Assembly: GCA_964607485.1 (NCBI GenBank)
Contig: CAZSKP010000004.1
Coordinates: 64,001 to 128,000 of the forward strand
DNA: 64,000 nucleotides
Direction: 5' to 3'
DNA from: an uncultured bacterium
Lineage (GTDB): Bacteria; Abyssobacteria; SURF-5
The notes beneath the pieces are model-generated. The model had not been told where the DNA came from. It saw nothing but the letters and a program-made list of their open reading frames with translations, and ran no database searches. Of the stretch, positions 7,629-55,820 are shown piece by piece. The number at the start of each line of letters is the position of its first letter. Positions within the stretch are counted from its first letter, which is position 1. The position numbers and the translations under genes are program-made.

Positions 7629-7727
7629 CCTTCACTGTTTTGAAGCAACGAAGAGTCAACCTTCCACCTATCCGATTCTTCAAGTATCGCTCTCAGAGAC
7701 TGCACACTTCGTCTTCTATTCTGCACT
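7629..7727 (+). repeat. intergenic repeat family, copy A
   Basis: CCTTCACT..AGTCAACCTTCCACCTATCCGATTCTTCAAGTATCGCTCTCAGAGACTGCA-CACTT-CGTCTTCTATTCTGCACT. Confidence 0.85.
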
Positions 7728-7896
7728 CATCTCCCAAACTCCTATTCTCCAGTAAGCATTTCTGGAAATGGAGAATATTTCTCTCTTCAAGGAAGAATCC
7801 CAGCTTCTTGTCGATGCCCCCTGGTCGTGAAAAACCCGCCGCTTTCTGATATACTGATTTTTCCGAGATACCCAGATGTGAAACGAAAAGAAAGGA

Positions 7897-10158
7897 ATGT
7901 TATCCACAATGGCAGAAAGAAAAGAAGACAGGCTCGCTCACGGTAAATCACGTAGGAAGTTCTCTACTGTTGGCGTGATCGCACTGGCTATCGCTGCCCT
8001 GGCGTTGTGTTCAACCCAATCAGCCATGGCGGGCGACATCCCTGGAACCGGTAAGGACGCGGGGAAGACAGTAGTGTATCGCGACACGTGGGGCGTGCCT
8101 CATATCTTTGCGCCGACCGTCGAGGCGGGCGCGTACGCCATTGGCTGGGCCCAGGCGGAAGATAGACCGGAGGAACTCCTCAAAAATTTCCTTCGAGCCA
8201 TGGGTGAAGACGCAAAGGTTGAAGGCCCGGCATGGATCAAGTCGGATCTGGTGATGCGTGCGTGGAGGAACTACGAAGTCTCCAAAGAAAACGCTCACCG
8301 CATCCGGCCTGAAGTGCGTAAGATGCAGCAGGCCTGCGTCCGCGGCATCAACGATTATTATGCTGCGCATCCGGAGGATGTTCCGGAATGGTGGGGAACG
8401 CGCAAGGTCGATGAATACATGATGATCGCGTTTGGCCGATTATTTCTCTATAATTGGTCTTTTGAGCAGGCGTTTGCCGATTTGGCCAGGGGCGGCATAG
8501 AACCCGGCATAGAGCCGATAAAGCATGGCTCGAACGAGTTCGCCGTCTCACCCGCCAGGAGCGCAGAGGGAGCGGCGATTCTTGCTATCGATCCGCATCT
8601 TTCGTGGTGGGGTTTGACTCGCTTCTGGGAGTTCCGCATTCATGCAGGCGAGCTCAACGGAAGCGGCTTCACTCTGCCCGGTTTTCCGAACATTGGGCTC
8701 GGCCATACCGACTATCTCGCCTGGGCGATGACCACCGGTGGGCCCGATACTGCCGATGTGTATGAACTCACCCTCAACGCGAATAACCCCTCGAAATATC
8801 TCTACGACGGCGAATGGAGGCAGATGACTTCACGTGACATAACGATAGAAGTGAAAGGAATGGAACCACAGCATTTCAGGGTCTACTACTCGCACTATGG
8901 CCCTGTCGTGGCCCAGAAGAACGGTAAAGCCTATGCCGCGAAAACCGCCTACGCCGATTGTGTCCAGGCGGGTGAGGCATGGTATGAACTGAACTTCGCA
9001 AAAGATTATCGGGGTCTTATCGCCGCGGCGGACACACTCCAGCTCTACCCGCAGAACGTCATGGTCGCCGATACCTCCGGCAATATTTTCTATGAGCGCG
9101 TGGGGCGCGTGCCCCGCCGGCCGGCGGGATTCGACTGGTCGCGGCCGGTCAACGGATCGACATCGGCGACCGAATGGCAAGGGTTTCATCCGGCCTCTGA
9201 CTTTGTTCAGATACTCAATCCGTCGCAAGGATACATGCAGAACTGCAACGTTCCGCCTGATGTGATGATGGTCGGCAGTCCCCTCACGCCCGGGAAGACG
9301 CTGCCCTACCTGTATGGCGACCTGATCTACGGTCCGCTCAGTGGCTGGATAACTTCACGCGGTGCCCGGGCGGTCGAGCTGCTTCAAGCCGACGACTCGG
9401 TGACTGCGCAAGAAGCCAAATCATATATTCTGGATGTTCGCCCGGCCGGTATTGATCGATGGCTTGAGGTCTTGAGGAACGCGGACGCAAAATTCGGTGC
9501 AGCGCATAAGGACGACAGCGATTACGTGGCAGGCATCAAAGAAATGAAAGCCTGGAATGGCGAGCTTCGGCGCGATTCATCAGCCGCCTTGAAGTACTAC
9601 TATTGGAAGAAGCAGCTCTTCGAGGATTACGGAACCGATCCTTCGGCAATTGAATTGGCCGGGCGCATCGATGACCTGCTTGGCTCAGTGGGTGCTCCCG
9701 CTCCAGAATTGAATTTGACGGACGACCAGCTTGCGGCCCTCGCCGACGCCTTTGCCTCGGCCATGGCAAGCCTGAAGGCCGACATGGGCTCGCTCGACGC
9801 GAAATATGGCGACATGTTCCGCGTGGGGCGAGACGACAAGTCCTGGCCTGTAGGCGGTGGAGGTCCCAATAATCTGGGTATGCGAACGCTCCGTAACGTG
9901 GAATATGGACCCGAACGGCCAGACCATACTCGCTGGGGCAGTGGTGGCCAGACCTCAACGCAGATCGTCGTCATGAGCAAACCCGTGAGGAGCTGGACCG
10001 CTGTACCGATTGGGCAAAGCGACCGACCGGAGTCGCCGCATTACAACGATCAGGCCGAAAAGCTCTTCAGCAAGCGCACGCTGAAACCCACGTGGTACGA
10101 CCCTGAAGAGCTGGCAGGCCACATAGAATCACGCACCGTTCTCGACCGGGCACCTTAA
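7897..10158 (+). CDS. penicillin acylase family (Ntn-hydrolase) secreted amidase
   Basis: Signal peptide, YRDTWGVPHI, GWAQAEDR, GSNEFAV nucleophile Ser, DPHL, GQS..PESPHYNDQ; start uncertain. Confidence 0.9.
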   Translation: MLSTMAERKEDRLAHGKSRRKFSTVGVIALAIAALALCSTQSAMAGDIPGTGKDAGKTVVYRDTWGVPHIFAPTVEAGAYAIGWAQAEDRPEELLKNFLRAMGEDAKVEGPAWIKSDLVMRAWRNYEVSKENAHRIRPEVRKMQQACVRGINDYYAAHPEDVPEWWGTRKVDEYMMIAFGRLFLYNWSFEQAFADLARGGIEPGIEPIKHGSNEFAVSPARSAEGAAILAIDPHLSWWGLTRFWEFRIHAGELNGSGFTLPGFPNIGLGHTDYLAWAMTTGGPDTADVYELTLNANNPSKYLYDGEWRQMTSRDITIEVKGMEPQHFRVYYSHYGPVVAQKNGKAYAAKTAYADCVQAGEAWYELNFAKDYRGLIAAADTLQLYPQNVMVADTSGNIFYERVGRVPRRPAGFDWSRPVNGSTSATEWQGFHPASDFVQILNPSQGYMQNCNVPPDVMMVGSPLTPGKTLPYLYGDLIYGPLSGWITSRGARAVELLQADDSVTAQEAKSYILDVRPAGIDRWLEVLRNADAKFGAAHKDDSDYVAGIKEMKAWNGELRRDSSAALKYYYWKKQLFEDYGTDPSAIELAGRIDDLLGSVGAPAPELNLTDDQLAALADAFASAMASLKADMGSLDAKYGDMFRVGRDDKSWPVGGGGPNNLGMRTLRNVEYGPERPDHTRWGSGGQTSTQIVVMSKPVRSWTAVPIGQSDRPESPHYNDQAEKLFSKRTLKPTWYDPEELAGHIESRTVLDRAP

Positions 10159-10340
10159 TATGATCGCGTTCAGCCTGATGCGGGATGCGAAGATGCTCCG
10201 GCTTCTGGTGGGCAAGAATCCCGTCCTGCAGATAATCGCGCTGCAGAAGGTATGGGATAGATCAGCGATATGCGAGAAGATTTGTATTTTCATATGGGGT
10301 GCAGGGCCGAATTCATTCGGCCACACGACCCCCGAGCGGC

Positions 10341-11369
10341 CTAAATGAACGTCAGCATCCTCGCAGGATTTCCAACCGTTATCGCGTCGATATCCTGATT
10401 GCTCATTCCCTTGCGCTTCATGATGGGAAGCACGCTGTCGAGTATGTGATTATACCCCTCCCCGCCGTATTTCGCCAATTGCGTCTTGTGGCAGACATCC
10501 ATCGATACGAGTATTTTGTCACCGTACCCTCTTTCAATGAGATTGATGATGTAATCGACCCGTCCCGCATCATTCGGCATGTCGATATCCGAAAGCGGAT
10601 AGTAGCTTGCCTCCTGGCCAAAGAGATCGAACTCAATATAGCATCCGGTTTCGGCCAGCCTGAGCATATCGTTCAGTTTCAGGAGTGTCCGCTCCACATG
10701 ACTCATAATCGTTCGTTCCGGATCACCTCCGGCGTCCTTGACAATGCGGATCGCATCGAGAGGCGCCTCCTCGGAGCGCCCGGGATGAATGTTGAGAGCT
10801 GCGCCTGATTGCGTCTGAGCCATGGCGCCGGCGCGAAGAACTCTAACCTCATTGTCATATGCCGGCCAATCCAGCGCTATCTCACCGATGATGCCGGCCT
10901 TTATCCCTGTTCCGTCTGCACCGCGGGTGATTTCGTTCAAGAAAATCCCGGCGATATCCTCTTCCGAGAGATTTGCTATGTCGGGCGGATGAAAGGCGGC
11001 GTTGTAGTAACTCGTTCCCATGACGACATGGACGCCTGCGGCACGCGATATGCGCGCATATGCCTCAGGGTCGCGGCCGGTACCGATGGGACTCAGCTCA
11101 ACAACCGTTGCGCCGCCCGATGCCTTGAAGCGCTTCAATTCTTCAATGGCATCTGTCTCGCTGTCGAGGCTCAAGTTGTACGGATTGCTGAGCCAGTTGC
11201 GTCGAAAATAGCCGACATTCTCGAGCGTTATCGGTTCACCTTTGTATTCTTCACGCAACGTTTCAGGAATCAAGTTAACGAGGAGATGCTCGTGGGTCTG
11301 CGTAAAGCCCAGTTCCTCTGGCCCGATAACGCCCAGAACCGTCTGTACTTTTCCCGTCAATTCTTCCAT
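10341..11369 (-). CDS. phosphotriesterase-related amidohydrolase
   Basis: VQTVLGVI, THEHL, IKAGIIGEI, IHPG, MSHVE, NPARML. Confidence 0.9.
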   Translation of the reverse strand: MEELTGKVQTVLGVIGPEELGFTQTHEHLLVNLIPETLREEYKGEPITLENVGYFRRNWLSNPYNLSLDSETDAIEELKRFKASGGATVVELSPIGTGRDPEAYARISRAAGVHVVMGTSYYNAAFHPPDIANLSEEDIAGIFLNEITRGADGTGIKAGIIGEIALDWPAYDNEVRVLRAGAMAQTQSGAALNIHPGRSEEAPLDAIRIVKDAGGDPERTIMSHVERTLLKLNDMLRLAETGCYIEFDLFGQEASYYPLSDIDMPNDAGRVDYIINLIERGYGDKILVSMDVCHKTQLAKYGGEGYNHILDSVLPIMKRKGMSNQDIDAITVGNPARMLTFI

Positions 11370-13703: not shown

Positions 13704-13734
13704 TCGATCCTGCACAACCCGATGATGAGACGTC

Positions 13735-14155: not shown

Positions 14156-14605
14156 TTATCGATAAGGAAAGAGGCTGCGCTTGAAGTCGTCAAGTTGATT
14201 GAGGAGTTTCAAGTGCTTGGATTCGTCTTCAAGCAAATATGTGAGGAGATACCTGATCTCAAATAGTCGACTGTCGCGAATCGCTTCCTGCGCGATATCC
14301 ACTGACTTATGCTCGATCCCGTGGTAGCCTTCCACCAAATCCCATATTTCCACCAGCTCGTCCGGCGTCAGGTGAAGTGCCTCCTTTGTAAGGCTATCTC
14401 TAATAAGCTTCAGAACTTCAATATGCGACTCTGAATCTCTTCGGATTATTTCAGCGATCATTTTTATCAAAGTATTCTTGGTTCTTTTCTGAACTTCGGT
14501 GCATGTTTTTGCTGAAAGTGATTCCATCTTCTGCCATTTGTCCAAGTCAACAAGAAATCGCTCCTTCTTCTCAGCAGACTCCAATGACTTCCTTGGCATG
14601 ATCAA
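14156..14605 (-). CDS. ferritin-like four-helix-bundle protein
   Basis: Two helical repeats with DSESH and EDESKH metal-ligand motifs. Confidence 0.7.
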   Translation of the reverse strand: MIMPRKSLESAEKKERFLVDLDKWQKMESLSAKTCTEVQKRTKNTLIKMIAEIIRRDSESHIEVLKLIRDSLTKEALHLTPDELVEIWDLVEGYHGIEHKSVDIAQEAIRDSRLFEIRYLLTYLLEDESKHLKLLNQLDDFKRSLFPYR

Positions 14606-14930
14606 TCACCCTTTCTTGCCACAGTTCACCTCGCAAGAGTTTTCGGGTTACGGCTCCAATCGTGCGGACGTTCTCCCCATGTCCAGCCAAACCAGGGAAA
14701 ACTCTTGAGAAGGCTGAGGCGCCCCTATAAAACTGAGGCAACACACCCTAAACCATTGGCCTAAGAGCCTTTATTCCTTAGCCCGTTCTGACACCCTCGC
14801 CAGTTGGTAGCTCTGGCCTTGAACATGCGCACATTAATTATACCATGATCTATTGAGCTGTGGCGTATCCGGTGACAATTTGAGAAAAAACAATAGATTT
14901 GCTCATATATTAATTATTTCCAATTTTTGG

Positions 14931-15005
14931 AAAATCAACCTTCCACCCATCCGATCGTTCAAATAGCGCCCTCAGAGAGTGCATAATACGTTTTCAATTC
15001 TGCAT
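14931..15005 (+). repeat. intergenic repeat family, copy B
   Basis: AATCAACCTTCCACCCATCCGATCGTTCAAATAGCGCCCTCAGAGAGTGCA-TAATA-CGTTTTCAATTCTGCAT. Confidence 0.9.
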
Positions 15006-15116
15006 TTTATGAGATGGCGTCTTCCCCCGAAAGGGTAGCCCAATAGGATCTCTTGCTTTGAACATCGTTCTGGAGCCGTTTCAGGCCTTAGAAGAGGCAG
15101 GTGCGTCGAATAACCA

Positions 15117-16034
15117 TTAGAGACTATTCAGTTTGGTGAACAGGTCGCGAAAGATCGGGTCGCGATGGACATAGGTGGCATAGCGGATAAGATGCCGGCT
15201 GCCATCAAAACTCCAGGTGAGTTCATCGGTCACAATCGGGCTGTTGACCAACTCTGTCGGTACCCAATTGTCGTTGATGAGGTAGGCAATGGCGGAGATA
15301 TCCCAGATGATTTTAGACCAGCCAAAGTGGTCTGTATGATACCCTTTAACAGTCTCCACCAGGTAATTTCCTAACTCACTCCTGCCGAGGACAAAAGCCT
15401 CAAGCTCAGGGACCGTGGTCTGCAGGTGAGACGCGACACCCATGGCGGGAATATGAACCAGCGGCACGCCGCAATCGAAGATAAGCCGCGAGGCCGGCAC
15501 GTCCTGCCATAAATTGAATTCCTGCGTATGCGGCCAGTGCAGGGCATGCCCGCCCAACCAGACAACCACAATCCTGTCGACAATCTCAGGCTCCATGAGA
15601 ATTGCGGAAGCCACATTGGTGATGGCCCCGATAGCGACGACATAGAGCAGGTCATCCGCTGACGCGGCCATAGCCCGCGCCACCAGATTTGATGCGGCCT
15701 CACTATCCTGAGGCTGAAGGTTGGCGTTAAGGTAGGCGGTCGATCCCCTATAGGCAAAATCTTCTGCGGGCCACTGCATTTTACTTAACAGCCTGATAAT
15801 CTCCTCATAGCTTTTTTCCATGCCGTCTGCCGGTCCCGAAGACCGGTCGTTGTGGAACGGTGCGGCGTAGATCGCTTCAACCGCCAGCCGGTCCGGCGAC
15901 AGCAGCGCATAGACCAGGGCAAACTGATCGTCAACTTCATTATAAGTATCCGTATCAAGTACCATCCGTACCTTATTCGTTGGCGGCTGCAACCGAGCCA
16001 GGCGCGCCGATTCAGAAATGGTCGGAAATTTCAC
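15117..16034 (-). CDS. nucleoside hydrolase (IUNH family)
   Basis: DTDTYNEVDD, IGAITNVA, WLGG, EFN, IWD motifs. Confidence 0.9.
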   Translation of the reverse strand: MKFPTISESARLARLQPPTNKVRMVLDTDTYNEVDDQFALVYALLSPDRLAVEAIYAAPFHNDRSSGPADGMEKSYEEIIRLLSKMQWPAEDFAYRGSTAYLNANLQPQDSEAASNLVARAMAASADDLLYVVAIGAITNVASAILMEPEIVDRIVVVWLGGHALHWPHTQEFNLWQDVPASRLIFDCGVPLVHIPAMGVASHLQTTVPELEAFVLGRSELGNYLVETVKGYHTDHFGWSKIIWDISAIAYLINDNWVPTELVNSPIVTDELTWSFDGSRHLIRYATYVHRDPIFRDLFTKLNSL

Positions 16035-16276: not shown

Positions 16277-16388
16277 AGCGCGGGGAATAGATTCCTGAGA
16301 ATACAGTGAGAACCTTCACTTTCCCGGCCATCCGATCGTTCAAATGGCGTCCTCAGGTAGTGCGCAATACGTATTCAACTCTTGACTG
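16277..16388 (+). repeat. intergenic repeat family, copy C (deletion in left part)
   Basis: ATAGATTCCTGAGAATAC..CCTTCACTTTCCCGG|CCATCCGATCGTTCAAATGGCGTCCTCAGGTAGTGCG-CAATA-CGTATTCAACTCTTGACT. Confidence 0.85.
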
Positions 16389-16411
16389 GCTTTACAAGGC
16401 CGATTCTATCG

Positions 16412-17578
16412 CTATAGCGGTATCGTCAGTTCGTCAAGGGTCTCGGGCGCTTCGGTGAGCTTCGCGTTTCCCGTGTCGGTAATCAGCACCGTGTCGGAGT
16501 GTCGGAAGCCGCCCACGCCCTCTATGTAGATCCCCGGCTCGATGCTGATCATCATTCCCGGCACGAGTTCGCGCTCGTCGCCGAGAGCGACATACGGGGC
16601 CTCATGGCCGGTTATTCCCATACCGTGACCCGTTCGGTGGATGATGTTATGGCCGTAGCCCGCATCTGCAATGACTTTGCGCACTCTCTTGTCTATCTCG
16701 CTCAGAACTGCGCCGGGTTTCGCCATGTCATAGGCAAGCGCCCTTGCCTCCATGGAAACCTCGAAAGGCCTTTTTGCGTTTTCGGGCACGTGGCCGAGGA
16801 AAAATGTCCTCTCGATCTCTACGCCGTAACCGTCAATCTGTCCTCCTACGCCGGAGACATGCGGGCCGCCCTCCTCCATGGGAAGGAACGGGGTAGGCAC
16901 AAAATGCGGGTCGTGCGACTTTGATGGAGGCAGGACCATCGCTACGGGCTTGGTGACAAAGTAATTGCAGTCCGGGATGTCTTCGAGAATTTTTTCCATC
17001 AGGAATCGTTGGACTTCGGTAAATACGAACATCTCCAATGCGCCCGGTCTTGCAACCTCGAGCAGCACCTTGTGTCCCTCGCTTATGATCCCACAGGCAT
17101 GTACGTTCCGTCCGATTTCGTATTCCGTCTTGACAAGGCGAACCTCATCGATGATGTCGTCGACTATCTGCTCTCCGGGCGTTTTCTTGGAGATATGAAT
17201 TGGCATGGCGCCTTCGATTCCCACGAGGGCATCGTTCTCGATCAGAAGTTGATACACCTCGAACCAGTTCTCGCCTTTCGGGGCGGGAAACTCATAGTAT
17301 GTTACATAATCCAGTTCTATCCGCGCCCGTGTCTTAACATGGGCTGCCTCCAGAAGGGGACACACCATGTTCGGCGCTCCACTATTCGATATCACCAGGA
17401 GAAAGGGCCGCTCGTGCACATAATTGGCGAAGTTGGTAAGGTAATAGATGTTCACCGGATCGAAGGAGACATAGTAGTCCAGGTTTCTTTCCCGCATCAA
17501 CGCTCTTACCTTCTCCAGACGACCGGTGAGTTCCTCCTCGGTTGGAGGTGACGCTATCGGCTTTGGTGTTTCGCTCAT
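16412..17578 (-). CDS. Xaa-Pro peptidase family (M24) protein
   Basis: Creatinase-type N-domain, HRTGHGMG..HEAP, SIEPGIY, GFRHSDT. Confidence 0.9.
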   Translation of the reverse strand: MSETPKPIASPPTEEELTGRLEKVRALMRERNLDYYVSFDPVNIYYLTNFANYVHERPFLLVISNSGAPNMVCPLLEAAHVKTRARIELDYVTYYEFPAPKGENWFEVYQLLIENDALVGIEGAMPIHISKKTPGEQIVDDIIDEVRLVKTEYEIGRNVHACGIISEGHKVLLEVARPGALEMFVFTEVQRFLMEKILEDIPDCNYFVTKPVAMVLPPSKSHDPHFVPTPFLPMEEGGPHVSGVGGQIDGYGVEIERTFFLGHVPENAKRPFEVSMEARALAYDMAKPGAVLSEIDKRVRKVIADAGYGHNIIHRTGHGMGITGHEAPYVALGDERELVPGMMISIEPGIYIEGVGGFRHSDTVLITDTGNAKLTEAPETLDELTIPL

Positions 17579-17735
17579 GGCTTCCTCCGATAATCCTTAT
17601 CTTAAGCCCCAACGTCTATGAGTTTTCCCTCATTGATTTAGAATATCATATCATATTGGACAGCCCTGCAAATGGCAGTGCGAACAATCCAGTTCCGTGT
17701 CAAACCTCGCCGTTTCCCTTACCTCTCGGAGGGAA

Positions 17736-17793
17736 ATCCGACCTTTTAGATATCGCTCTGAGAGAGTGTAAAAGACGTTTTCGATTCTGCACT
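17736..17793 (+). repeat. intergenic repeat family, copy D
   Basis: ATCCGACCTTTTAGATATCGCTCTGAGAGAGTGTA-AAAGA-CGTTTTCGATTCTGCACT. Confidence 0.85.
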
Positions 17794-17900
17794 AGTTACG
17801 ACCTTTCCCATAAAGCATTCTTGCTCTTTACGAAACTGAAGGACACCCATCTCACTAGGGTCGGGATGACCTCAAATCTGATGCTGCCTAGGGTTGAGAT

Positions 17901-18108: not shown

Positions 18109-18528
18109 ATGATGTCGGCCATGCTTTCCCAAAAAGCGGAAAAGAAAGTTCTTGTGGTGGACGACAATGAAGATGTTCTAGATTCAATCAAGATTCTCCT
18201 TGAGCTTATCGGATTGAAGGTCAAGGCGATGAGGGGTGGAGAAGAAGCCATTGAGGAGATTAAAGGTCACAAATATGATCTGTTGGTCTTTGATGTCGCC
18301 ATGCCGGGGATTGATGGAGTTGAATTGTATAAAGTAGTCAAGAGCAGCGAAGAACACAAGAACACCCCAGTACTGTTCACTTCTGGATTCCCCAGCTGGA
18401 TCGAGCCTGAGGAACAAAGAAGGAAGATATTCAGCAAAGCAGAGGCCTATATTCAGAAGCCTTTCAATACGGACGCTTTCATCGAAACGATTCAAGGGCT
18501 CTTGAAGGTACGGGATTCTATCACATGA
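18109..18528 (+). CDS. single-domain response regulator (receiver)
   Basis: VLVVDD, FDVAMPGIDG phospho-Asp, QKPF. Confidence 0.9.
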   Translation: MMSAMLSQKAEKKVLVVDDNEDVLDSIKILLELIGLKVKAMRGGEEAIEEIKGHKYDLLVFDVAMPGIDGVELYKVVKSSEEHKNTPVLFTSGFPSWIEPEEQRRKIFSKAEAYIQKPFNTDAFIETIQGLLKVRDSIT

Positions 18529-18604
18529 ATAGGTCCAATTATTTCATGACGACCATTGGCCTGACGGCTCAGAGGCATACGCAGGGAACCTCAGGAGAGG
18601 ATAG

Positions 18605-18865
18605 ATGCTTGATTGGATAATTATCACGCTGGCTTTAGTTTCTTTGATCCCCCTATTGACTGAGTTTCGGGTCAGATGGTTTTCACGGAAAAGGAAAGAT
18701 CCCCATATTTATGAGCAACTGGCAAAGACCGTCAACAGAATAGCGAACGATGCACACAAAGATGAGGAATTATCAGCTGTTAGGAAACGCCTTAAGAAAT
18801 TTTCGGGGACTGGCCAGAGCGATAAGCGAATCTCCAGAATCGAACAGACAGTCCCGTCAATCTGA
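18605..18865 (+). CDS. small membrane-anchored hypothetical protein
   Basis: AGGAGAGG RBS, N-terminal hydrophobic helix followed by basic residues. Confidence 0.55.
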   Translation: MLDWIIITLALVSLIPLLTEFRVRWFSRKRKDPHIYEQLAKTVNRIANDAHKDEELSAVRKRLKKFSGTGQSDKRISRIEQTVPSI

Positions 18866-18979
18866 AACTTGCCGGACTCAGAGCATCAAGTCGATTCTAA
18901 TACAGCGATTGAATAGACCAGTTTCCTAAAAGGCAATCCATCGATGTGCACTTTAAAGGTTTCCTAAGGGAGATTTGGA

Positions 18980-19444
18980 ATGCCTGCCAAGAGAATCTTT
19001 GAGGGTTTGAGCAAGCCTGAGATAAACCGCATATTCGATTTGGGCGTGATTCGCCCAATTAACGAAGGAGAACTGATATTTCGCAAGGGCGACATCGGCC
19101 AAGAAATGTATATCATATTGACGGGAATGATTAATATTGTTGATGAGTTGAAAGCCAATGCTTTAGGAATTATTGCGGAATTGGGGCCCGGCGAGGTCCT
19201 CGGCGAAGTCGCGATATTTGGGGAACCCCATAAGCACTCGGCCCACGCCATTGCCAAGGAACGGACGCAGGTTCTCGTGCTGAGCGAGAAGATGCTAAAC
19301 GAGCTGTTTGAAAAAGATATTCCAAAGAAATTCCTTATGAATATTATCAAGATACTCTGTCATCGTCTTAGGGTCACTAACCGCATGTACATGATCGCCA
19401 AATTCAGCGACAAACTTCTCCCGAAGGAAAGATCAGTGGAATGA
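18980..19444 (+). CDS. stand-alone cyclic nucleotide-binding domain protein
   Basis: IFRKGDIG.EMYIILTG, LGPGEVLGEVA, SAHAIA; no HTH. Confidence 0.85.
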   Translation: MPAKRIFEGLSKPEINRIFDLGVIRPINEGELIFRKGDIGQEMYIILTGMINIVDELKANALGIIAELGPGEVLGEVAIFGEPHKHSAHAIAKERTQVLVLSEKMLNELFEKDIPKKFLMNIIKILCHRLRVTNRMYMIAKFSDKLLPKERSVE

Positions 19445-19488
19445 AGTTGCAGTAGGTCTAATCGTTCGAAATCGCGGCCAAAATCTCC

Positions 19489-19540
19489 AACTCTACCACC
19501 GGTCCGATCGTTCATTGGTGAGTTTCAATTCTTGACTGAT
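19489..19540 (+). repeat. intergenic repeat family, copy E (internally deleted)
   Basis: CCACCGGTCCGATCGTTCA...TTTCAATTCTTGACTG. Confidence 0.6.
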
Positions 19541-19689
19541 TTTCGCTTATCAAGAACCGAATTCTCAGCCTCCAGAAGCGTAGAATTCCCCCCTCCCTGA
19601 GAAGTTTCTTCGCCCCTCCAAATCTCAAACTCTCAGTGGCAAGATCCCTTTGCATTCTGATATACTGAACTCAAAGAAAAGGTGATGCC

Positions 19690-20499
19690 ATGGCAAAAAT
19701 CACAATTGACGGAATTGAGCTCTACTATGAGCTACATGGTTCTGAAGGCCCCTATCTAACCCTCATCTGCGGTCTTGGCTCTCATTTGGCCGCCTGGGAT
19801 TTGGAGCTTGTTGAAGAGCTCTCTAAGAAGACACAATTAGTTCTGTTTGATAATCGAGGGGCAGGACGCAGCGACAAGCCGGATGTCGATTATTCAATTC
19901 AGATGCACGCAGACGATGCTGCAGGTTTGATCGATGCGCTTGGCATCGCAAGGTCTCATATCCTGGGAGCGTCCATGGGAGGAATGATCGCCCAGGAATT
20001 TGCTCTACGCCATTCTGACAGGACAGAAAGCCTCATACTGTGTTGCACGGCTCCCGGTGGAGACATGATGGTCCCGCCCGAGCAGGAAGTTATCCAAAAA
20101 CTTGCTCAAGTAGATGGACTAACCCCGGAAGAAATCTGGCGCAAGAACCTTCCCCTCAGTTTCACGAAGGAGTTCATCCAGAATAATGAAGAGTGGCTCG
20201 ACGAGAAAATGCGTCGAGAGCTTCCATACACTGCGCCACCGTTCTCCTTCAAACGCCAAATGGCGGCGGCAATGCGGCATGATGCTTATGATCGTCTGCC
20301 AGACATAAAATGCCCGACATTAGTGATGACCGGGACAAAGGACATCCTTATTCCACCGCAGAACTCGGATCTTATTGCATCTCAGATCCATGAGGCGGTG
20401 CTTAAGAGGTATGAGTCTGTGGGCCACGCATTCATGACAGAGGTTAGAGAAGAAGTGGTGCGTGACATCCTGGATTTTGTGACGCAAAGCCCTTCTTGA
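19690..20499 (+). CDS. alpha/beta hydrolase (enol-lactonase-like)
   Basis: DNRGAGRS, GASMGG, GTKD, GH catalytic triad. Confidence 0.9.
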   Translation: MAKITIDGIELYYELHGSEGPYLTLICGLGSHLAAWDLELVEELSKKTQLVLFDNRGAGRSDKPDVDYSIQMHADDAAGLIDALGIARSHILGASMGGMIAQEFALRHSDRTESLILCCTAPGGDMMVPPEQEVIQKLAQVDGLTPEEIWRKNLPLSFTKEFIQNNEEWLDEKMRRELPYTAPPFSFKRQMAAAMRHDAYDRLPDIKCPTLVMTGTKDILIPPQNSDLIASQIHEAVLKRYESVGHAFMTEVREEVVRDILDFVTQSPS

Positions 20500-20515: not shown

Positions 20516-20614
20516 AGATTCCCCGGAATAACAGTTGAAAACTTCACTCCGCCGTTTTTCCATAGGTGCACATTTCACCCATCCGATTGCCTAAATATCG
20601 CTCTCAGCTAGTCC
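20516..20614 (+). repeat. intergenic repeat family, copy F (right end lost)
   Basis: GAAAACTTCACT..GGTGCACATTTCACCCATCCGATTGCCTAAATATCGCTCTCAGCTAGTCC. Confidence 0.85.
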
Positions 20615-20741
20615 AGACCGAGATGCAGCTCCCATCCTTTCAATTTCCTAAATTTCGTCTTCGCTCATTTTGGGCAACCTCTCCCTATCTTGACTCTTGA
20701 ACGGAACGGCACCTGCCAGCCTGCTATGCTTGTGCTGGCGG

Positions 20742-21209
20742 TTATCTCAGATCAGCGAGGACTTTATCCGCCACCTGTCGAGCGGCTTCTTTTCGCTCGG
20801 CTTCCGGGACATCGTCAATATTCATGAGGTCTGAATATTTGCGATATATACTGAGGCCGTCGAAAATGCGCAGGCTCTCCCCACCAATCAGGTTTTTCAT
20901 GATTCGGCCATGACAATGCATGAAGCAGCCATCAATCACTACAAACTTTTCAGCCTCCCTTGCCCATTTCGCTATAGCCGAATCGGGGGCCGTGAATATT
21001 TCTCCGTGGCAGCTGCGTGCAAACGGTTCTTCCTTTGCCACCATGTTAGCTGCGAGCCTGGCAATTTCCCCACGGATGCATCCACCTTCGCATGAAATGA
21101 CCGGTATTTTCCCCTGCGCGAGCATCGCATTCCCCGCAGTTTCTCCAACCGGGCAGACATTTGTCGCGCTTTGAACTTCGAGACTAAAACTTCTTTTTGA
21201 CTCACTCAT
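20742..21209 (-). CDS. DGC-domain putative zinc-binding protein
   Basis: SCEGGC..GEIAR, SC, IDGCFMHC. Confidence 0.8.
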   Translation of the reverse strand: MSESKRSFSLEVQSATNVCPVGETAGNAMLAQGKIPVISCEGGCIRGEIARLAANMVAKEEPFARSCHGEIFTAPDSAIAKWAREAEKFVVIDGCFMHCHGRIMKNLIGGESLRIFDGLSIYRKYSDLMNIDDVPEAERKEAARQVADKVLADLR

Positions 21210-21450
21210 GACAGCCTCCTCGCCTGGCCATCCGCAGTTATGGCCACGGCATTGTGATTGCGAACGTTTTTCTTGATCCCATCGCTCCTCGGAACCTTGC
21301 CTACCGTCTGAGAAATCGTTCCATCTCCGCCACAGCCTCCAGAGTCTGTAGCCATTGTCTTTACTCTTTCTTTTTGGCCGAAGAACTTTTAAGATCTTTA
21401 GTCCACTCGCACTTCACTTGACTATAATGGCACGGTGATTCCTCGAGCCA

Positions 21451-21768
21451 TCAGTTTTTGCTTTTCCACCTTATGCGGCTGAAGACACCGATCCACAAGC
21501 CGAACGCTATCATCGCGAGCGGCCAAAACTGTTCCGCCTGAATCCATCCCACGGTATCGGCCAACCAGAGCAGGCCAATCGCGATGAGCAGGATTCCGAA
21601 CCGGCTATGTGAGCCTCTGCCGGCCCTGGCGCGGCCGCCACACCAATCCCAGCAGCTCCAGTCGGTATTGGCGCTACGCTTTTCAGCGGCCTGCCCTGAT
21701 GCGGACTCGTCGCGAGGCTGCTGTTGCCCCAAGTCTGCTGCCTGAGAGGTTCCAGACTTCTTATTCAT
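21451..21768 (-). CDS. small two-TM membrane protein (LiaI/LiaF-TM-like)
   Basis: FGILLIAIGLLWL...FWPLAMIAFGLW; AGGAG RBS. Confidence 0.6.
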   Translation of the reverse strand: MNKKSGTSQAADLGQQQPRDESASGQAAEKRSANTDWSCWDWCGGRARAGRGSHSRFGILLIAIGLLWLADTVGWIQAEQFWPLAMIAFGLWIGVFSRIRWKSKN

Positions 21769-21808
21769 TGTCCTGCTCCTTTCCCTGCTTCCTGAGTGTA
21801 GCCCTACA

Positions 21809-21877
21809 TTATCCGCAACAGCCGGGCGCCTGTTTCGACTCGCTGGACGAGGAAGTCTCCGAAACGGGTTTCCTCAT
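21809..21877 (-). CDS. 22-aa micro-ORF ending in GCCG (or detached tail of the upstream gene)
   Basis: AAGGAG RBS, MRKPVSETSSSSESKQAPGCCG*. Confidence 0.4.
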   Translation of the reverse strand: MRKPVSETSSSSESKQAPGCCG

Positions 21878-21903
21878 CGAACTCCTTTATCCTCGCCTAT
21901 CCG

Positions 21904-22167
21904 CTAGGTCGCACTCCAGCGCGGATCGATACCGTCCTCGACCCGTATCCCCAATGCTTTCCCTTCTGCCACGGCCTTTTGGATATCCTCCTTCGTAACG
22001 CCAGTTGCCTTGAGCTCGGGGATGATCTCGTCTAAGCATTGATCGCAACCAGCACTCGCGGCTACGCCTGCCATAGACAAGAGCGCAATCTTGTGGTCGA
22101 TAATATTTGACGCCCATCTTCCAGTCTTGTTCTTCTTACCGTTACGTTCCTCAATTTTCGTTTGCAT
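21904..22167 (-). CDS. carboxymuconolactone decarboxylase/AhpD-like protein with CxxC, possibly truncated
   Basis: IALLSMAGVAASAGCDQCL...GVTKEDIQKAV. Confidence 0.6.
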   Translation of the reverse strand: MQTKIEERNGKKNKTGRWASNIIDHKIALLSMAGVAASAGCDQCLDEIIPELKATGVTKEDIQKAVAEGKALGIRVEDGIDPRWSAT

Positions 22168-22231
22168 GATCCCGCTCCTTCCTGATGGCCGGACACTTCC
22201 TCTTATCTAAATATCTCTATTTAACGAACTA

Positions 22232-22597
22232 TTAGCCCAAAAAATTTTTCCCCCGATCCCCAGGCTCAGCGACAAATCGGTCCAGGAATCCAGCAAGCTT
22301 TGTGACTGAATTGAGGTTTATTGTGTAATATACCCACCTTCCCCGCTTATGCCGCTCTAGCAATCCTGCTGTATGGAGCTCCTTGAGATATTGCGATATA
22401 GTCGATGGCGCCATCTCAAACTGCTCGCCAAGCTTATCCACACAGCATACAGAATTTTCCTTTACGTCAAGCGCCTCGGCGCATTCTGAATAATTGGCGT
22501 ATTGCGACTGGATCTTCCGGATGGCCTGGAACATTTTGAGCCTATTCTCATTGCAAAGGGCTTTGAAGATCCTGACTAACTGTTCCTGATTCATCAT
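22232..22597 (-). CDS. ArsR/SmtB family transcriptional regulator
   Basis: FKALCNENRL, CCV..L, PSTISQYLKEL..AGLL, GRWVYY. Confidence 0.9.
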   Translation of the reverse strand: MMNQEQLVRIFKALCNENRLKMFQAIRKIQSQYANYSECAEALDVKENSVCCVDKLGEQFEMAPSTISQYLKELHTAGLLERHKRGRWVYYTINLNSVTKLAGFLDRFVAEPGDRGKNFLG

Positions 22598-22670: not shown

Positions 22671-22849
22671 GTATTTTTTTGCACGATGCCAAAAAAATTG
22701 AGCGCCAGCAATGTAAACCTCTTCGTTTCAAATATTTACATGACATGAAGGGACTTTCCGAAGAAGAATCTTTCCTATTCCAAACCTCCTCCGATGTTTT
22801 GAGGTCATCGGCCTCGAGAGATGTCTCCCATAATTTCCCGTGGGCCAAC

Positions 22850-23002
22850 ACCCATTCAGCAACAGAAGCGGACGAGATAGATTTCTGAGAATACTTGTTA
22901 AACGCTTCACTTCTCCGGCTTTTATGAAAGTGCACATTTCACCCATCCGATTGTGCAAACGTTGCTTTCCGCTAATGCAGATAACGTTTTCGACTCTGCA
23001 CT
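22850..23002 (+). repeat. intergenic repeat family, copy G (long form)
   Basis: ACCCATTCAGCAACAGAAGCGGA..CTGAGAATA..CTTCACT..AAAGTGCACATTTCACCCATCCGATT..TGCA-GATAA-CGTTTTCGACTCTGCACT. Confidence 0.88.
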
Positions 23003-23302
23003 GAGTCTCTGGTCTTCGAAGGCTAGTTCTTCGCCTCGAGAAGGAGAGAATTCCACCGTTCCCGCCAGAAAACTTCACACCCGATTACATCCCCGATTCA
23101 TGGAAAGCCGGCTCATATGATCGGGTTTGACTTGACCCATTGTTGTGGTATGATATTCTTTCAGATTTGCCGTTAGCGACCTCGTAGCCGTGTCCCGGGA
23201 GGGGATACCATGGCGCAGGGGTTGTTATCATAGAGAAAAGGTGAAAGACAAAATTCAGGACTGGATTTCAAGCGCGCGCGTCTGCCCCGCACGCTTTTCC
23301 CC

Positions 23303-24478
23303 ATGACCCCAAAAGAACGCGTCCGTACCGCTATTGCGCACAGAGAACCTGACAGGGTTCCCGTGTTCGAACTCACCATCAACTCGCCGGCCGCCTCTGA
23401 TATCATGGGACGCCAAATGTACGTCGGCTTTGGCGGATGGCTCGTCGCCAAACAGTTCTCCGAATGGATGGCCGAGGGACGCAGCCTCGAGCTGGCGGTC
23501 AAGATATTCCAGGATACGATCAAGCTGTACGAACACCTCGAACTCGATATCTTCCCGCTGCCCACGCTTCCCCTGACCGACGAGTCGGTGGAGCCCGTGG
23601 GCGAGAACCGCTGGCGCTACACCGATCCGGCCTCCGGCTTCTGGCGCGTCATCACCTACGAGCCCGGTTCCGATTACCATGGCGAGATCGACTCGAAGAT
23701 CAAGCGGGAGGGCATGCCCGCCCTGCGGCAATACGTCGAGCACCTGGAGCAAAACCCGTCGATCGTATCGCCCGAGCTGGCCGCCGGCCTGAAGGCAGTC
23801 CTCGAGCCCGCGACCGAGCGGTTCTTCGTGCTGGGCCAGGCCGACGTGCTGCTGCCGACCGGCGAGAGCTGGTTTCCGCTGTTTCTCGAAGCGATGGCCC
23901 TCGAGCCCGAGTTGATCGAACGATACGTCGAGGTGACCACCACGTCGATGCTCGACCTGATCGACGCACAGGTCGAGGCGGGCGCCGACGGGTTCATCGG
24001 CGGCACCGATATCGCGCACCACACGAACACGATGTTCTCGCCCGCCATGTTCCGGCGCTTCATGGCACCGCAGCTCCGTCGCATAACGGAGCGGTGCCAC
24101 GCGCACGACGTACCGTTTTTCAAGCACACCGACGGCAACATCGCCGCCATCGAAGAGGACTTGCTGCTCGGCTGCGGAATCGACGGCTACCACGCGATCG
24201 AGCCGACGGCGGGCATGGACATCGCACGGCTCAAGAAGACGTATGGCGATAAGCTCACGCTGCTCGGCAACATCGACTGCGGTTCCCTGCTGACCGAGGG
24301 GCCGCCCGGGCGGATCGTCGATGCCGTGCGCCGATGCATACGCGATGCCGCGCCAGGCGGCGGATATGTGCTCAGCTCGAGCAACTCGATCCACAGCGGC
24401 GTGCCGACCGAGCACTTCCTCACGATGCTGCGGGCCGCGCGCGAGTATGGGACATATTCGATCGGAGCCGTGTCGTGA
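23303..24478 (+). CDS. uroporphyrinogen decarboxylase (URO-D/MtaA-CmuA) family protein
   Basis: MTPKERV..EPDRVP, FSPAMFRRF, HTDGN, LLGNIDC, GGGYVLSSSNSIH; visibly more GC-rich than neighbours. Confidence 0.88.
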   Translation: MTPKERVRTAIAHREPDRVPVFELTINSPAASDIMGRQMYVGFGGWLVAKQFSEWMAEGRSLELAVKIFQDTIKLYEHLELDIFPLPTLPLTDESVEPVGENRWRYTDPASGFWRVITYEPGSDYHGEIDSKIKREGMPALRQYVEHLEQNPSIVSPELAAGLKAVLEPATERFFVLGQADVLLPTGESWFPLFLEAMALEPELIERYVEVTTTSMLDLIDAQVEAGADGFIGGTDIAHHTNTMFSPAMFRRFMAPQLRRITERCHAHDVPFFKHTDGNIAAIEEDLLLGCGIDGYHAIEPTAGMDIARLKKTYGDKLTLLGNIDCGSLLTEGPPGRIVDAVRRCIRDAAPGGGYVLSSSNSIHSGVPTEHFLTMLRAAREYGTYSIGAVS

Positions 24479-24542
24479 GCGATCTCGGGAGAAATTGCGA
24501 AAAACATAACTCTGTTTATCCATCTGTGGAGTTGGGAAAGAA

Positions 24543-25868: not shown

Positions 25869-25896
25869 ATGGAACCACTGCCTTCCATCCGCCACT

Positions 25897-26046
25897 ACCC
25901 ATTCAGCAATATAAGCGGAAGAAATAGTATCTGAGAATATTGTTGAAAGTGTGACTTTTTTTGCCTCTCTGAAAGTGTGACTTTCACCCATCCCATCGTT
26001 CAAATATCACTCTCAGCCAGTGAAGTTTGCGTTTTCACCTCCGCGT
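25897..26046 (+). repeat. intergenic repeat family, copy H (long form)
   Basis: ACCCATTCAGCAATATAAGCGGA..CTGAGAATA..TTTCACCCATCCCATCGTTCAAATATCACTCTCAGCCAGTGAA-GTTTG-CGTTTTCA. Confidence 0.88.
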
Positions 26047-26071
26047 GAACATATTCCCGGCCAAGCACCTG

Positions 26072-44661: not shown

Positions 44662-45192
44662 ATGTCATCTAATATTGAGGTCAAAGCTAAGGTCAGAGAA
44701 CTGGACCAATTCAGATGCATTGCAATGCGCATGGCCACAGAACCGTTGCAGACACTTCATCAAGAAGACATTTTCTTCCGCGTACGAACGGGAAGGCTTA
44801 AGCTACGAATCTTTTCAGATGGTACAGGTGAACTGATACAATACGAGCGTCCAGATATCAGTGGAGCCAAACAGTCAAATTACCAGATTCACCGCACATC
44901 CAAGCCGCTGGAGTTGCGAAAAATCCTGTCGGAGGCTCTGGGTGAGACTGCAACGGTAAAGAAGAAGAGAGAGGTCTACATAGTAGGGCAGACGAGGATT
45001 CACTTAGATGAGGTCGATACGTTGGGGACTTTTGTTGAAGTGGAAGTAGTGTTGAGTCCCGGCCAGAGCCCGGACGAGGGACGGAGAATTGCATCCGATC
45101 TCATGGATAGGTTGGGCATCAAAGAGTCTGACTTGGTTCCTTGCGCCTATGCAGATCTTCAAAAAAACAAGGCTGAACAAGAGCGTGCCTGA
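44662..45192 (+). CDS. CYTH-domain protein (class IV adenylate cyclase-like)
   Basis: NIEVKAK, RLKLR, VKKKREVY, RIHLDEV, FVEVEV. Confidence 0.88.
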   Translation: MSSNIEVKAKVRELDQFRCIAMRMATEPLQTLHQEDIFFRVRTGRLKLRIFSDGTGELIQYERPDISGAKQSNYQIHRTSKPLELRKILSEALGETATVKKKREVYIVGQTRIHLDEVDTLGTFVEVEVVLSPGQSPDEGRRIASDLMDRLGIKESDLVPCAYADLQKNKAEQERA

Positions 45193-45196
45193 GGCC

Positions 45197-45293
45197 GCTT
45201 CACTTTCCCGGCTGCCCGCGAGTGCACCTTCCACCCTTCCGATCGCTCAAACATCGCTTTGAGAGAGTCAAGTTTTCGTTTTCAATTCTGCAC
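45197..45293 (+). repeat. intergenic repeat family, copy I (comM-proximal)
   Basis: CTTCACTTTCCCGG..GAGTGCACCTTCCACCCTTCCGATCGCTCAAACATCGCTTTGAGAGAGTCAA-GTTTT-CGTTTTCAATTCTGCAC. Confidence 0.9.
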
Positions 45294-45442
45294 CATTTGA
45301 AAGCTTTTCCTTGTCCGGCCTGCCGAGTCCCACGCAGTGAAGGATACCGACCTTTCCGGCTCTCCGAAACCACAAAAATATGAGACATTTCAAGATTGTC
45401 CAGGGTGCTGTGGTGCCGCCGACAAAATCCTGCCGTCTGGCG

Positions 45443-45472
45443 TTGACATGAACGCAGTCCTGCCGCTATAAT
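45443..45472 (+). promoter_or_regulatory. comM sigma70 promoter
   Basis: TTGACA-N18-TATAAT. Confidence 0.75.
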
Positions 45473-45513
45473 TGCGCCACTGTTTTCTACCAGCATGCAA
45501 CCAGGAAATTCCG

Positions 45514-47049
45514 ATGCTCGCGAAGGTCTTCAGCAGTTCCGTGTTCGGGGTGGACGCCTACCAGGTCGAGGTCGAGGTGGACCTGGGCGGCGGGCTGCCT
45601 TCGTACACAGTCGTCGGCCTGCCCGACACGGCCGTCAGGGAAAGCAGGGAACGCGTCGCCGCCGCTATCAAGAACTCCGGCTACGTGCTGCCCAGCAAGC
45701 GCATCACCGTGAACCTCGCCCCCGCCGACGTGAAGAAGGAGGGCTCATCGTTCGACGTGCCCATCGCCATCGGCATCCTCGCCGCCTCCGAGCAGGTCAA
45801 GAGCGAGAAATTCCTCGACTATTACATTGCAGGGGAATTATCGCTCGACGGAACCATCCGCGGCATTCCCGGCGTGCTGACGATGGCGCTTCAGGCGTCG
45901 AAGATGAACAGGCGCGGCATCGTCGTTCCCACCGACAACTCGGCCGAGGCGGCGGTCGTCGAGAAGGTGGAGGTCATACCCGCGAAGACGCTGCGAGCGC
46001 TCGTCGATTTCCTCGAAGATTTCACGCCGATCGAGCCTCACCGGATAGACCTCGAAGCCGCCTTCAGGCAAAGCTCCCGATATGCGATTGACCTTCAGGA
46101 GGTGAAGGGACAGGCGCACGTGAAGCGGTCGCTCGAGGTCGCCGCCGCGGGAGGGCACAACGTGCTCATGATCGGCCCGCCCGGCTCGGGCAAGACGATG
46201 CTGGCCAAACGCCTCGCGACCATCCTGCCCGATATGACCCTCGAAGAGTCATATGAGACCACGAAGATTCACAGCATCAGCGGGTTCCTTCCTCCGGGGA
46301 AGCCGCTCATCGCGACGCGGCCGTTCCGCTCGCCGCACCACACGATTTCCGACGTCGCGCTCGTCGGCGGAGGCAACTACCCGAGACCGGGCGAGGTCAG
46401 TCTCGCGCACAACGGCGTCCTGTTCCTCGACGAACTGCCCGAGTTCAACCGGAAGGCGCTTGCGGCGATGAGACAGCCGCTCGAAGACGGCTGCGTCACC
46501 ATCTCGCGCGCCGCATATTCGCTCACCTTTCCCGCCAGCTTCATGCTCACCGCCGCGATGAATCCGTGTCCGTGCGGTAACCTGGGCGACCCCAGGCGCG
46601 AGTGCACGTGCCAGCCGTGGCAGGTGCAGCGGTATCTCGGCAGAATATCCGGCCCGCTGCTCGATCGGATCGACATGCACATGGAAGTACCCGCCGTCAA
46701 GTATGCCGACCTTTCATCCACCGAGCCGTCGGGCGAGCCCTCCGCCGCAATTCGCACGCGCGTGCAGAAGGCGAGGAACCTCCAGCGCGAGCGCTTTGGC
46801 GACGATTCGCTCCGATGCAACTCGCAGATGGGCTCGAAGCATGTGAAGAAATATTGTGTTACCACCGCCGACGCGAAGGAGCTTTTGAAGGCGGCCATCC
46901 TCAACCTCGGCATCTCCGCCCGTGCCTACGACCGCATCCTCAAAGTCGCTCGCACCATCGCCGACCTCTCCGAGAGCGATGTCATCCGCGCCGAACACAT
47001 TTCCGAGGCCATCCAGTACCGCAGCTTCGATAGAGGCCTCTGGAGGTAG
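45514..47049 (+). CDS. comM: YifB/ComM family Mg-chelatase-like AAA+ ATPase
   Basis: [69 protein letters not shown]. Confidence 0.96.
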
Positions 47050-50840: not shown

Positions 50841-50881
50841 GCGCGGTCCGGCCTCCATCGGTGGATTGCCGGACTATCAGC

Positions 50882-52749: not shown

Positions 52750-52796
52750 TTATTGCACCTCCTTGCCGTGTAATGAGAAATGCCCGCAAGAGACCA

Positions 52797-53921: not shown

Positions 53922-53938
53922 TTTCCTCTTTCCCTTCC

Positions 53939-55105: not shown

Positions 55106-55153
55106 TATCTGGTTCCTCCCATCGATTTAACTTTACCCGTGTTACGGGCCGGA

Positions 55154-55558
55154 CTATGAGCCGGACACGTAGGCTCCCTTCTTTTCCTCAGCGATGTTGT
55201 TTATGTATGCAAAATTCAGGAAGTATTCCAATGTACCCAGATACTTGCCGGACTTATCCCTGATTGCGAAAAAACAATTCAAGGCCCTGAGTCCCCAATC
55301 CTCTTTTATTACCCAGAACTCGTCTTCGTCCTTCTTTCCGCTCTTGAAATCCGACAGCATCTTTTCAAGCCTCGGTAGGCTGCTCTCTTTGTGGCAATCC
55401 CGGACGTCTTTTCCGAGGCTTTCTTCGGGGGGCTCCAGCAGGCGGGCCTTGGAGTTGTTCCAGTACCTGACGCGATCATTCTCGTCGATGAACAGAAGTT
55501 GAAACGGCATCGCATCGAACATACCTTCTATCTGTTCCGCTGTAAGCTTTTCGATCAT
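55154..55558 (-). CDS. PAS-domain protein
   Basis: FDAMPFQLLFIDENDRVRYWN..LGKDVRDCH..IRDKSGKYLGTLE. Confidence 0.8.
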   Translation of the reverse strand: MIEKLTAEQIEGMFDAMPFQLLFIDENDRVRYWNNSKARLLEPPEESLGKDVRDCHKESSLPRLEKMLSDFKSGKKDEDEFWVIKEDWGLRALNCFFAIRDKSGKYLGTLEYFLNFAYINNIAEEKKGAYVSGS

Positions 55559-55721
55559 GTTTCGCTCCTCTCCGTGGACGGCCTGAACGAATAACCGAAA
55601 CTATACTACTCGGTGGCCTCGGCTTTTTCAAGACAATCTCAATGGAAGCGAACGCGTGGGAGAGCTTTCTCCGAAGAGGCGGCATTGTTCACCCGCAGAA
55701 TTGTCACGAAGCATCCTTGGC

Positions 55722-55820
55722 CGTGCAGAATTGGAGAACGATCCGTGACTCATCTGGAGCGGTATGTGAGCGATCGGATGAGTGATGGTTGCGCTCTGGA
55801 GGTGGGGAAAATTGTCAAGG
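55722..55820 (-). repeat. intergenic repeat family, copy J (inverted)
   Basis: Minus strand: CCTTGACA..AGCGCAACCATCACTCATCCGATCGCTCACATACCGCTCCAGATGAGTCACGGATCGTTCTCCAATTCTGCAC. Confidence 0.8.

Follow-up and report, generated by a model that had tools for sequence, protein, structure and literature searches.

A 64,000-nucleotide stretch of DNA from an uncultured bacterium of the Abyssobacteria (SURF-5; contig CAZSKP010000004.1, positions 64,001 to 128,000; hereafter the window) carries modules of unrelated genes set between degenerate copies of one non-coding repeat, and the question raised by this locus is how such genes came to be lined up between copies of a single element. An earlier note on this DNA had proposed a platform for serial gene capture, distinct from an integron, anchored at and centered on the gene comM. 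We find that the copies mark joints between unrelated, shuffled gene blocks, and the idea of a non-integron repeat delimiting unrelated modules is thus supported; the idea of an anchor at comM did not hold up. The explanation that we favor, and to which we give about even weight, is that the repeat belongs to a family-wide, non-autonomous, integron-like module system, with a site of its own and a trans-acting, probably tyrosine, recombinase.

Coordinates without a prefix are positions in the window; elsewhere G denotes a genome (G000 being the one that holds the window), C a contig and L the label of a stretch. Copies were defined as envelopes of a refined profile built from 43 genomic copies and were counted at E<1e-3; on the reversed genome, used as a control, this profile gave only four matches, every one with E>2. 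All ten copies listed in the earlier note were found on the strands that it gave, although its exact starts are off by up to ~45 nucleotides (nt). Nine of the ten score E<1e-3, and the tenth (19454-19540), which has a 23-nt internal deletion, reaches only E=0.93 with an adjoining 3' arm at E=4.5e-14. As described previously, every module between 14.1 and 26.1 kb is closed by a copy, and the identities assigned to these modules are borne out by Pfam except for the gene called ferritin-like, a 149-amino-acid (aa) protein (14156-14605) that has no Pfam or NCBIfam match and is rubrerythrin-like only as an Atlas lead.

The window nevertheless holds only nine of the 45 copies in its genome, a point beyond the earlier note; these are found on 14 of 93 contigs, with 12 on the window's contig and 11 on C7. 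Rather than being spread evenly, the copies are clustered: 19 neighboring pairs lie less than 5 kb apart, as compared with a mean of 1.9 and a maximum of 8 in 2000 random draws, and 17 of these 19 pairs share a strand. Other clusters occupy islands at tRNA-Val (C7) and tRNA-Thr (C20), in which 250-310 nt separate a copy from the tRNA or from the duplicate of its 3' end, and six same-strand copies follow one another in G006:C3 with one gene between each. A sequence-only model detects the repeat in all nine family genomes (1-23 matches each) and in none of 141 genomes outside the family, with 25 candidates scored per genome. In an exact-pattern search, GTDB contigs gave 17 stretches and metagenomes 35, and a same-strand array was found on a Candidatus Abyssobacteria contig; viral contigs gave no match to three repeat patterns, and blastn found none to the repeat in plasmids and phages. 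Copies within G000 share a mean identity of 0.67 (maximum 0.79), and 0.69 (maximum 0.91) with the copies of other genomes; since the former are no more alike than the latter, these values argue against a recent burst of one miniature inverted-repeat transposable element (MITE). Our literature search, which left most subscription papers out of reach, found no description of the repeat, and the accessible main text of the paper on this lineage (PMC6121073) makes no mention of repeats, mobile elements, transposition, integration or kinase. Right after the six-copy array, and before the ruvAB-queA region, lie two Ku genes and a split LigD, all named by eye (G006:C3:74954-79400, L078).

Comparison with relatives indicates that what lies between the copies has been exchanged. 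The same modules are found between repeat copies in other genera, with new neighbors and at 82-87% identity; most of the remaining window genes are 68-79% identical to those of relatives. A flavin adenine dinucleotide (FAD) oxidoreductase module, shared by G005:C32 and G006:C3 at 83.5% identity over 1,573 nt, begins inside one repeat and stops inside the next, and its neighbors differ in the two genomes. A module for a FemAB-like acetyltransferase stands beside the repeat in G000:C9, G005:C44 and L199 (82-85%), each time with other neighbors, and the window's own 149-aa module recurs in new company between two repeats in G006:C3 (85% at the nucleotide level) and before one in G005:C51 (82%). 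When relatives' copies with both flanks homologous in G000 were considered, none of 21 junctions with a repeat proved to be retained in G000, as opposed to 24 of 47 control junctions (95 of 139 sampled; p=1.5e-5). The earlier note had set against its own proposal an even spread of copies across the genome and a module order kept at the repeat; neither holds, because the copies cluster and module order breaks at the repeat.

These results bear directly on the possibility that the repeat is a regulator's operator or a chromosome-organizing site, with no role in mobility, that merely co-occurs with variable regions. Long copies set several boxes upstream of a promoter, and this arrangement, together with position-specific conservation, would suit such a site, but synteny breaks at all testable copies, shared modules are bounded by copies in other genera, the cargo is functionally unrelated, and remnants of kinase gene ends lie between unrelated genes and the repeat, all of which renders this explanation highly improbable.

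The anatomy of the repeat provides a second line of evidence. Its core of ~105 bp comprises four ~11-bp boxes with one consensus (about AGTGMAGNWT), arranged as box 1 reverse, box 2 forward, a conserved center, box 3 forward and box 4 reverse. Spacings are held closely among 97 copies, with boxes 1 and 2 separated by 16 or 17 nt in 70 of the 73 scored, a distance of 45 nt from box 2 to box 3 in 83 of 85, and a gap of 7 nt between boxes 3 and 4, which are inverted, in 72 of 76. Conservation peaks in this last spacer (CGTTTTC, 1.72 bits) and falls from the center of the core (1.57) through the boxes (1.1-1.2 bits) to the spacer between boxes 1 and 2, which is lowest (0.52 bits). RNAalifold yields no pairs in the consensus and no covariation is seen; pairing at the box positions is at the level expected from composition, and DNA folding of the 45 copies gave median z values of -0.8 and -0.9, with z<-2 in 11 and 6 of 45. 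Because there is neither a consensus fold nor covariation, the repeat reads as a double-stranded-DNA-type site, bound as a duplex by protein; an RNA or hairpin role was rejected on these grounds and because Rfam has no match at gathering score within the window. The element also reaches past 105 bp on both sides, which had not been recognized before. Long copies extend 3' via boxes 5 and 6 to a predicted, outward-facing extended -10 promoter; 29 of 145 copies, of which 10 were seeds of the model, retain a remnant of this arm, nine further places in G000 carry arms without a core, and some loci hold inserted ~163-bp tandem 'B' units of the same boxes.

Parts of this architecture would also be expected if the repeat consisted of two abutted ends, right and left, of non-autonomous transposable units, whether MITE-like, Pack-like or resembling TIMEs (miniature elements with inverted repeats, derived from Tn3), moved by a DDE transposase in trans and building arrays by inserting time after time into end junctions. 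Boxes 1 and 2 make up an inverted repeat of 14 bp, and the spacer that they enclose is weakly conserved and comes in two lengths, which is what abutted ends would give; it is between these boxes that the shared sequence of the FAD module fades at one end, and a Mu-like transposase adjoins a copy in L180/L200. Interior replacement that leaves gene remnants behind is, moreover, typical of non-autonomous elements. The Mu-like transposase of L180, however, was rejected as the mover for want of a homolog in G000, and its element appears to interrupt box 4 in L180. Matches to rve near copies are insertion sequence (IS) fragments, truncation points are scattered instead of falling at one junction, and no genome shows a burst of near-identical copies. 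We consider transposon ends an unlikely origin for the repeat. The copies showed no sharp ends. The Mu-like element itself (L180:3-5980, L200, G006:C27:46653-48338) is compact, with genes for a transposase, an AAA ATPase, an excisionase-like helix-turn-helix protein, a head-protease-like protein and RadC.

The ends of the modules preserve traces of a particular gene. In 4 of 140 3' flanks searched with tblastn, and in two more with short starts, the arm promoter is followed by a Ser/Thr kinase-TPR gene or by the broken beginning of one (a fifth match, to a hydrolase domain, was excluded from this count). The arm precedes four of the six closest kinases, two of these being model seeds, and none of 21 more distant ones. 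At the other side, the last codons of kinase genes lie just 5' of the repeat in 2 of 141 flanks at E<0.01, one of these two remnants (53 residues) following an unrelated gene for a radical-SAM protein, and in five weaker matches, none antisense. A tandem kinase-TPR cluster on C2 is headed by a half copy of the repeat. Between a promoter arm and a repeat, L163:1011-2621 encodes a kinase domain fused to a truncated cache-like sensor fragment, likely a chimeric gene produced by cargo replacement. We infer that the ancestral module had the form arm-promoter-kinase-arm, with a Ser/Thr kinase-TPR gene probably as the ancestral cargo, and that its interior was later replaced by other DNA. The C2 cluster (G000:C2:79817-96229, L218) consists of seven tandem kinase or hydrolase-kinase-TPR genes behind the half repeat and promoter arm.

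An explanation that dispenses with a dedicated enzyme also draws on these traces. The repeat could have been the operator and promoter of one kinase subfamily, spread with tandem kinase duplications, and serve now as a homology anchor for RecA-type recombination, for instance during natural transformation. The placement of arm and promoter directly before the closest kinases and the cluster on C2 accord with this proposal, as do the scattered break points, the lack of an enzyme, and the duplicated comM and tRNA ends, which show homology-flanked insertion in the same regions. Against it, the copies are just ~67-69% identical, which is low for RecA over 100 bp; core and boxes are conserved where the promoter arm has been lost and where the next gene is antisense to the repeat (17 of 45 copies); and the upstream gene is co-oriented with the repeat more often (32 of 44) than the downstream gene (28 of 45). 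We judge this homology-anchor explanation to be improbable.

In the integron-like module system that we favor, a module would consist of the 3' part of a site with its arm and promoter, the cargo, and a 5' arm with the 5' part of a site, and the repeat itself would be the recombination site. A trans-acting recombinase, most likely of the tyrosine type because boxes 3 and 4 form an 11-7-11 inverted pair, would bind the boxes, excise a module between two directly repeated sites, and insert it at an existing site. Insertion at existing sites would produce same-strand arrays in regions that tolerate them, the islands at comM, tRNA-Val and tRNA-Thr being examples. New modules would arise when other DNA replaces the interior of an existing one, and the ends of the kinase gene would persist as remnants of variable length from the ancestral cargo. 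We entertain more tentatively the possibility of a capture system of a new kind, built on a six-box, promoter-bearing recombination site and served by an enzyme outside the recognized recombinase families or by a repurposed host Xer, which began as a mobile Ser/Thr kinase-TPR gene and generated new cassettes and kinase fusions by interior swapping. If true, such a system would have expanded kinase paralogs and traded metabolic genes among genera of one family.

Several observations weigh against a module system of this type. The earlier note had looked to a recombinase co-occurring with the repeat, and profile searches of the family genomes found no enzyme dedicated to it: the only tyrosine recombinases common to the family are XerC/XerD-like, with genes in most family genomes, and the repeat is near only 2 of 75 recombinase or transposase loci, both beside IS fragments. 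Resolvases (PF00239) were found in none of five genomes, with the control matched in 12 of 14. Neither blastn nor tblastx found an empty site, and excised circles, also anticipated earlier, were not seen in the contigs of one study. Strands are mixed on C7, with five copies on the plus strand and six on the minus. Housekeeping genes are more frequent at the control junctions of the synteny test than in the flanks of the repeat, and the contrast is therefore inflated. Of 27 loci at which relatives carry homologs of window genes, only two lie within 1.5 kb of a repeat, indicating that most cargo genes also occur as ordinary genes. Finally, homology ends 85-180 nt before the repeat in two shared modules, truncated copies end at scattered positions, and pairs of copies that share flanks (4 and 9 pairs) show no clear switch point.

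Other searches for an enzyme gave no candidate. Nothing found with PF00589, PF13495, PF01797, PF00665 or PF01548 was tied to the repeat, and no small recombinase was nested in a copy, either at the recombinase loci or among 415 open reading frames (ORFs) beside copies. The integron integrase model TIGR02249 stayed below cut-off in five of five genomes, which are incomplete, and no control genome passed either; searches for TniQ (PF06527) and for the IS91/ISCR Y2 transposase (PF04986) gave no match in five genomes, and none in their controls either. A third XerD-like gene (G000:C56:10698-11741, L220) was rejected as the repeat's enzyme, having no ortholog among relatives' best matches and no repeat nearby. 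Its product is a stand-alone 347-aa XerD paralog, 44% identical to the genome's other XerD-like protein and, by eye, seemingly without catalytic residues. The genome's best dif-like 11-6-11 candidate is at G000:C2:113106. Within the repeat, the variable positions 72-77 are seldom shared (2 of 41, against a background of 17%), a weak signal from one of 14 comparisons. The single joint seen between repeat copies links 26008 to 14944, with 38 nt on its shorter side and a likeness of 85; a paralogous copy is its best explanation, and it was not taken as evidence.

What, then, of comM? The gene is intact, as had been claimed: its 511-aa product scores 653 bits with TIGR00368 (cut-off 362). The window also contains three comM fragments that had escaped notice. 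The promoter and 5' end of comM are duplicated over 204 bp at 93% identity, and the two copies bracket 13.9-45.4 kb, a 31.7-kb stretch that would represent an island integrated at the 5' end of the gene. No gene for a PF00589 tyrosine recombinase or integrase is present on the window's contig, and hence none in this island. A capture platform anchored specifically at comM could draw on the copy that lies 118 nt upstream of the comM promoter and on the comM fragments that bracket the local array. With 36 of the 45 copies outside the window, clusters in the tRNA islands, and no full copy beside comM in G004, G005, G006, G007 or G009 (1.5-kb flanks for three of these, some cut by contig ends, and 20-kb stretches for two), it is hardly tenable. 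comM is one among several landing regions, and the repeat has no special tie to it.

The 3' end of comM is the scene of a separate serial-insertion process, distinct from the repeat. Copies of this end (26081-26331 and 58158-58203 in the window; G000:C4:131540-131644 and 133195-133341; G005:C4:12152-14031; G010:C62:38-1041) terminate short blocks of genes that follow comM in three genomes, including G010, without the repeat; in G005 the blocks hold toxin-antitoxin-like, Fic-like and four-helix-bundle-like genes, named by eye. Short pieces of comM near the Walker A codons were also seen (G000:C3:162754-163564 and 187749-187811; C5:91930; C6:115233; C27:13461), and on C3 two 100% identical comM pieces are fused, followed by a broken phage-type integrase beside tRNA-Pro.

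Features of the window are collected in Table 1. Among its other genes, the cNMP (cyclic nucleotide monophosphate)-binding genes at 18980-19444, inside the array, and 35186-35653, outside it, are ~70% identical at the nucleotide level and lie in opposite orientation, with more relatives in other genomes. Two minus-strand ORFs for acyl-CoA dehydrogenases (52797-54236 and 53939-55105) overlap by ~300 nt, and the longer one probably starts later.

Table 1. Repeat copies, modules and comM-derived sequences in the 64-kb window.
Feature	Position	Strand	Remarks
Repeat copy, full	7622..7730	+	E=2e-19
3' arm of element with sigma-70-type promoter (7827-7855, extended -10)	7729..7909	+	seed of arm model; faces penicillin-amidase-family gene 7897-10158
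Orphan comM promoter and first ~35 codons	13735..13938	+	93% identical to 45415-45618; putative left attachment site of ~31.7-kb island
Module: 149-aa rubrerythrin-like protein (lead only)	14156..14605	-	
Repeat copy, box 1 decayed	14901..15009	+	E=8e-21
Module: nucleoside hydrolase	15117..16034	-	Pfam
Repeat copy, internal deletion between box 1 and core	16306..16390	+	E=2e-11
Module: M24 peptidase	16412..17578	-	Pfam
Repeat copy, 10-nt deletion	17698..17796	+	E=2e-14
Module: receiver protein, 86-aa protein, cNMP-binding protein	18109..19444	+	Pfam
Degenerate repeat copy (19454-19540) with 3' arm, promoter toward next gene	19454..19679	+	arm E=4.5e-14, not a seed
Module: alpha/beta hydrolase	19690..20499	+	Pfam
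Repeat copy, ends after model position 85	20534..20641	+	profile
Module: ArsR-type regulator, CMD-like, small membrane and DGC-domain genes	20742..22597	-	Pfam
Repeat copy (core 22897-23005) with 5' extension and partial 3' arm	22834..23113	+	
Module: URO-D-family protein and serine hydrolase (PF00144)	23303..25868	+	Pfam
Repeat copy (core 25942-26050) with 5' extension	25885..26050	+	
Inverted, internally deleted piece of comM 3' part	26081..26331	-	
Weak copy of related 'B' unit, same boxes	34966..35059	-	E=0.004
Repeat copy (core 45190-45297) with 3' stretch also in C79 copy	45190..45359	+	on C79 this stretch runs into a kinase gene start
comM (YifB) with own promoter, intact	45415..47049 (gene 45514-47049)	+	TIGR00368
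Repeat copy, full	55719..55827	-	sole minus-strand copy among 12 on contig
Short copy of comM 3' end	58158..58203	+	83%

Integrons and pdif modules are established ways of stacking unrelated genes at a repeated site, and the repeat system works like integron and pdif arrays, yet fails their defining site tests. The ends of attC sites read RYYYAAC and GTTRRRY, and a single strand of the site forms a conserved hairpin whose arms covary. With integrons and integrase-less attC clusters, the system shares unrelated genes between degenerate sites, runs on one strand, units that recur in another order in relatives, a promoter carried by the site (predicted here), possibly an enzyme in trans, and modules exchanged between arrays. 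It differs from them in that attC ends occur in 0 of 97 copies on either strand, as the earlier note had anticipated, and in the lack of a covarying hairpin, in modules that are often antisense or multi-gene, in the four to six boxes of one type, and in the kinase remnants at module ends.

The pdif/dif modules of Acinetobacter, which depend on XerC/XerD, are site-flanked gene modules in clustered linear chromosomal arrays with no adjacent enzyme gene (PMC12907356), a layout that the present arrays match in a family to which XerC/XerD-like proteins are common. The site, however, is unlike theirs: none of the 97 copies has the dif-like inner pattern, the spacer is 7 bp rather than the 6 bp of the 28-bp 11-6-11 site, the repeat is a 105-bp multi-box site mostly in direct orientation, and its boxes do not resemble the dif-like candidates of G000. 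TIMEs and other non-autonomous Tn3-derived elements are likewise short, enzyme-less elements that enclose and move varied modules (PMC4133298), but no 38-bp terminal inverted repeats were seen here and the five genomes searched lack a resolvase. The TnsF-guided Tn6022/Tsy elements also involve comM, which they split by inserting near the Walker B codons (PMC10293859), whereas the present comM is intact, its duplicated part stops near codon 35, and the contig has no PF00589 gene. SE elements have a short exchangeable spacer at the joint (PMC10214605), and a short spacer at the joint is the feature shared; their intA-CDS2-intB-CDS4 genes are covered only by the generic PF00589 search, which may miss such divergent integrases. 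Islands integrated in the 5' end of a gene, such as those at dusA (PMC4482086), are the likely model for the comM 5' duplication, although the comM island has no integrase, and this comparison accounts for the landing region and not for the repeat.

Defined by its boxes, spacings and promoter, the site offers enough for direct hunting of the enzyme and for a two-site recombination assay. How integron cassettes first form is an open question, and the kinase remnants would be a rare trace of the first making of a cassette, in which cargo seems to replace the inside of an older one. If the preferred reading is true, an entire uncultured family keeps a third type of site, by which its genera exchange genes of metabolism and not of resistance, and the strategy of stacking unrelated genes at a repeated site would have arisen independently again.

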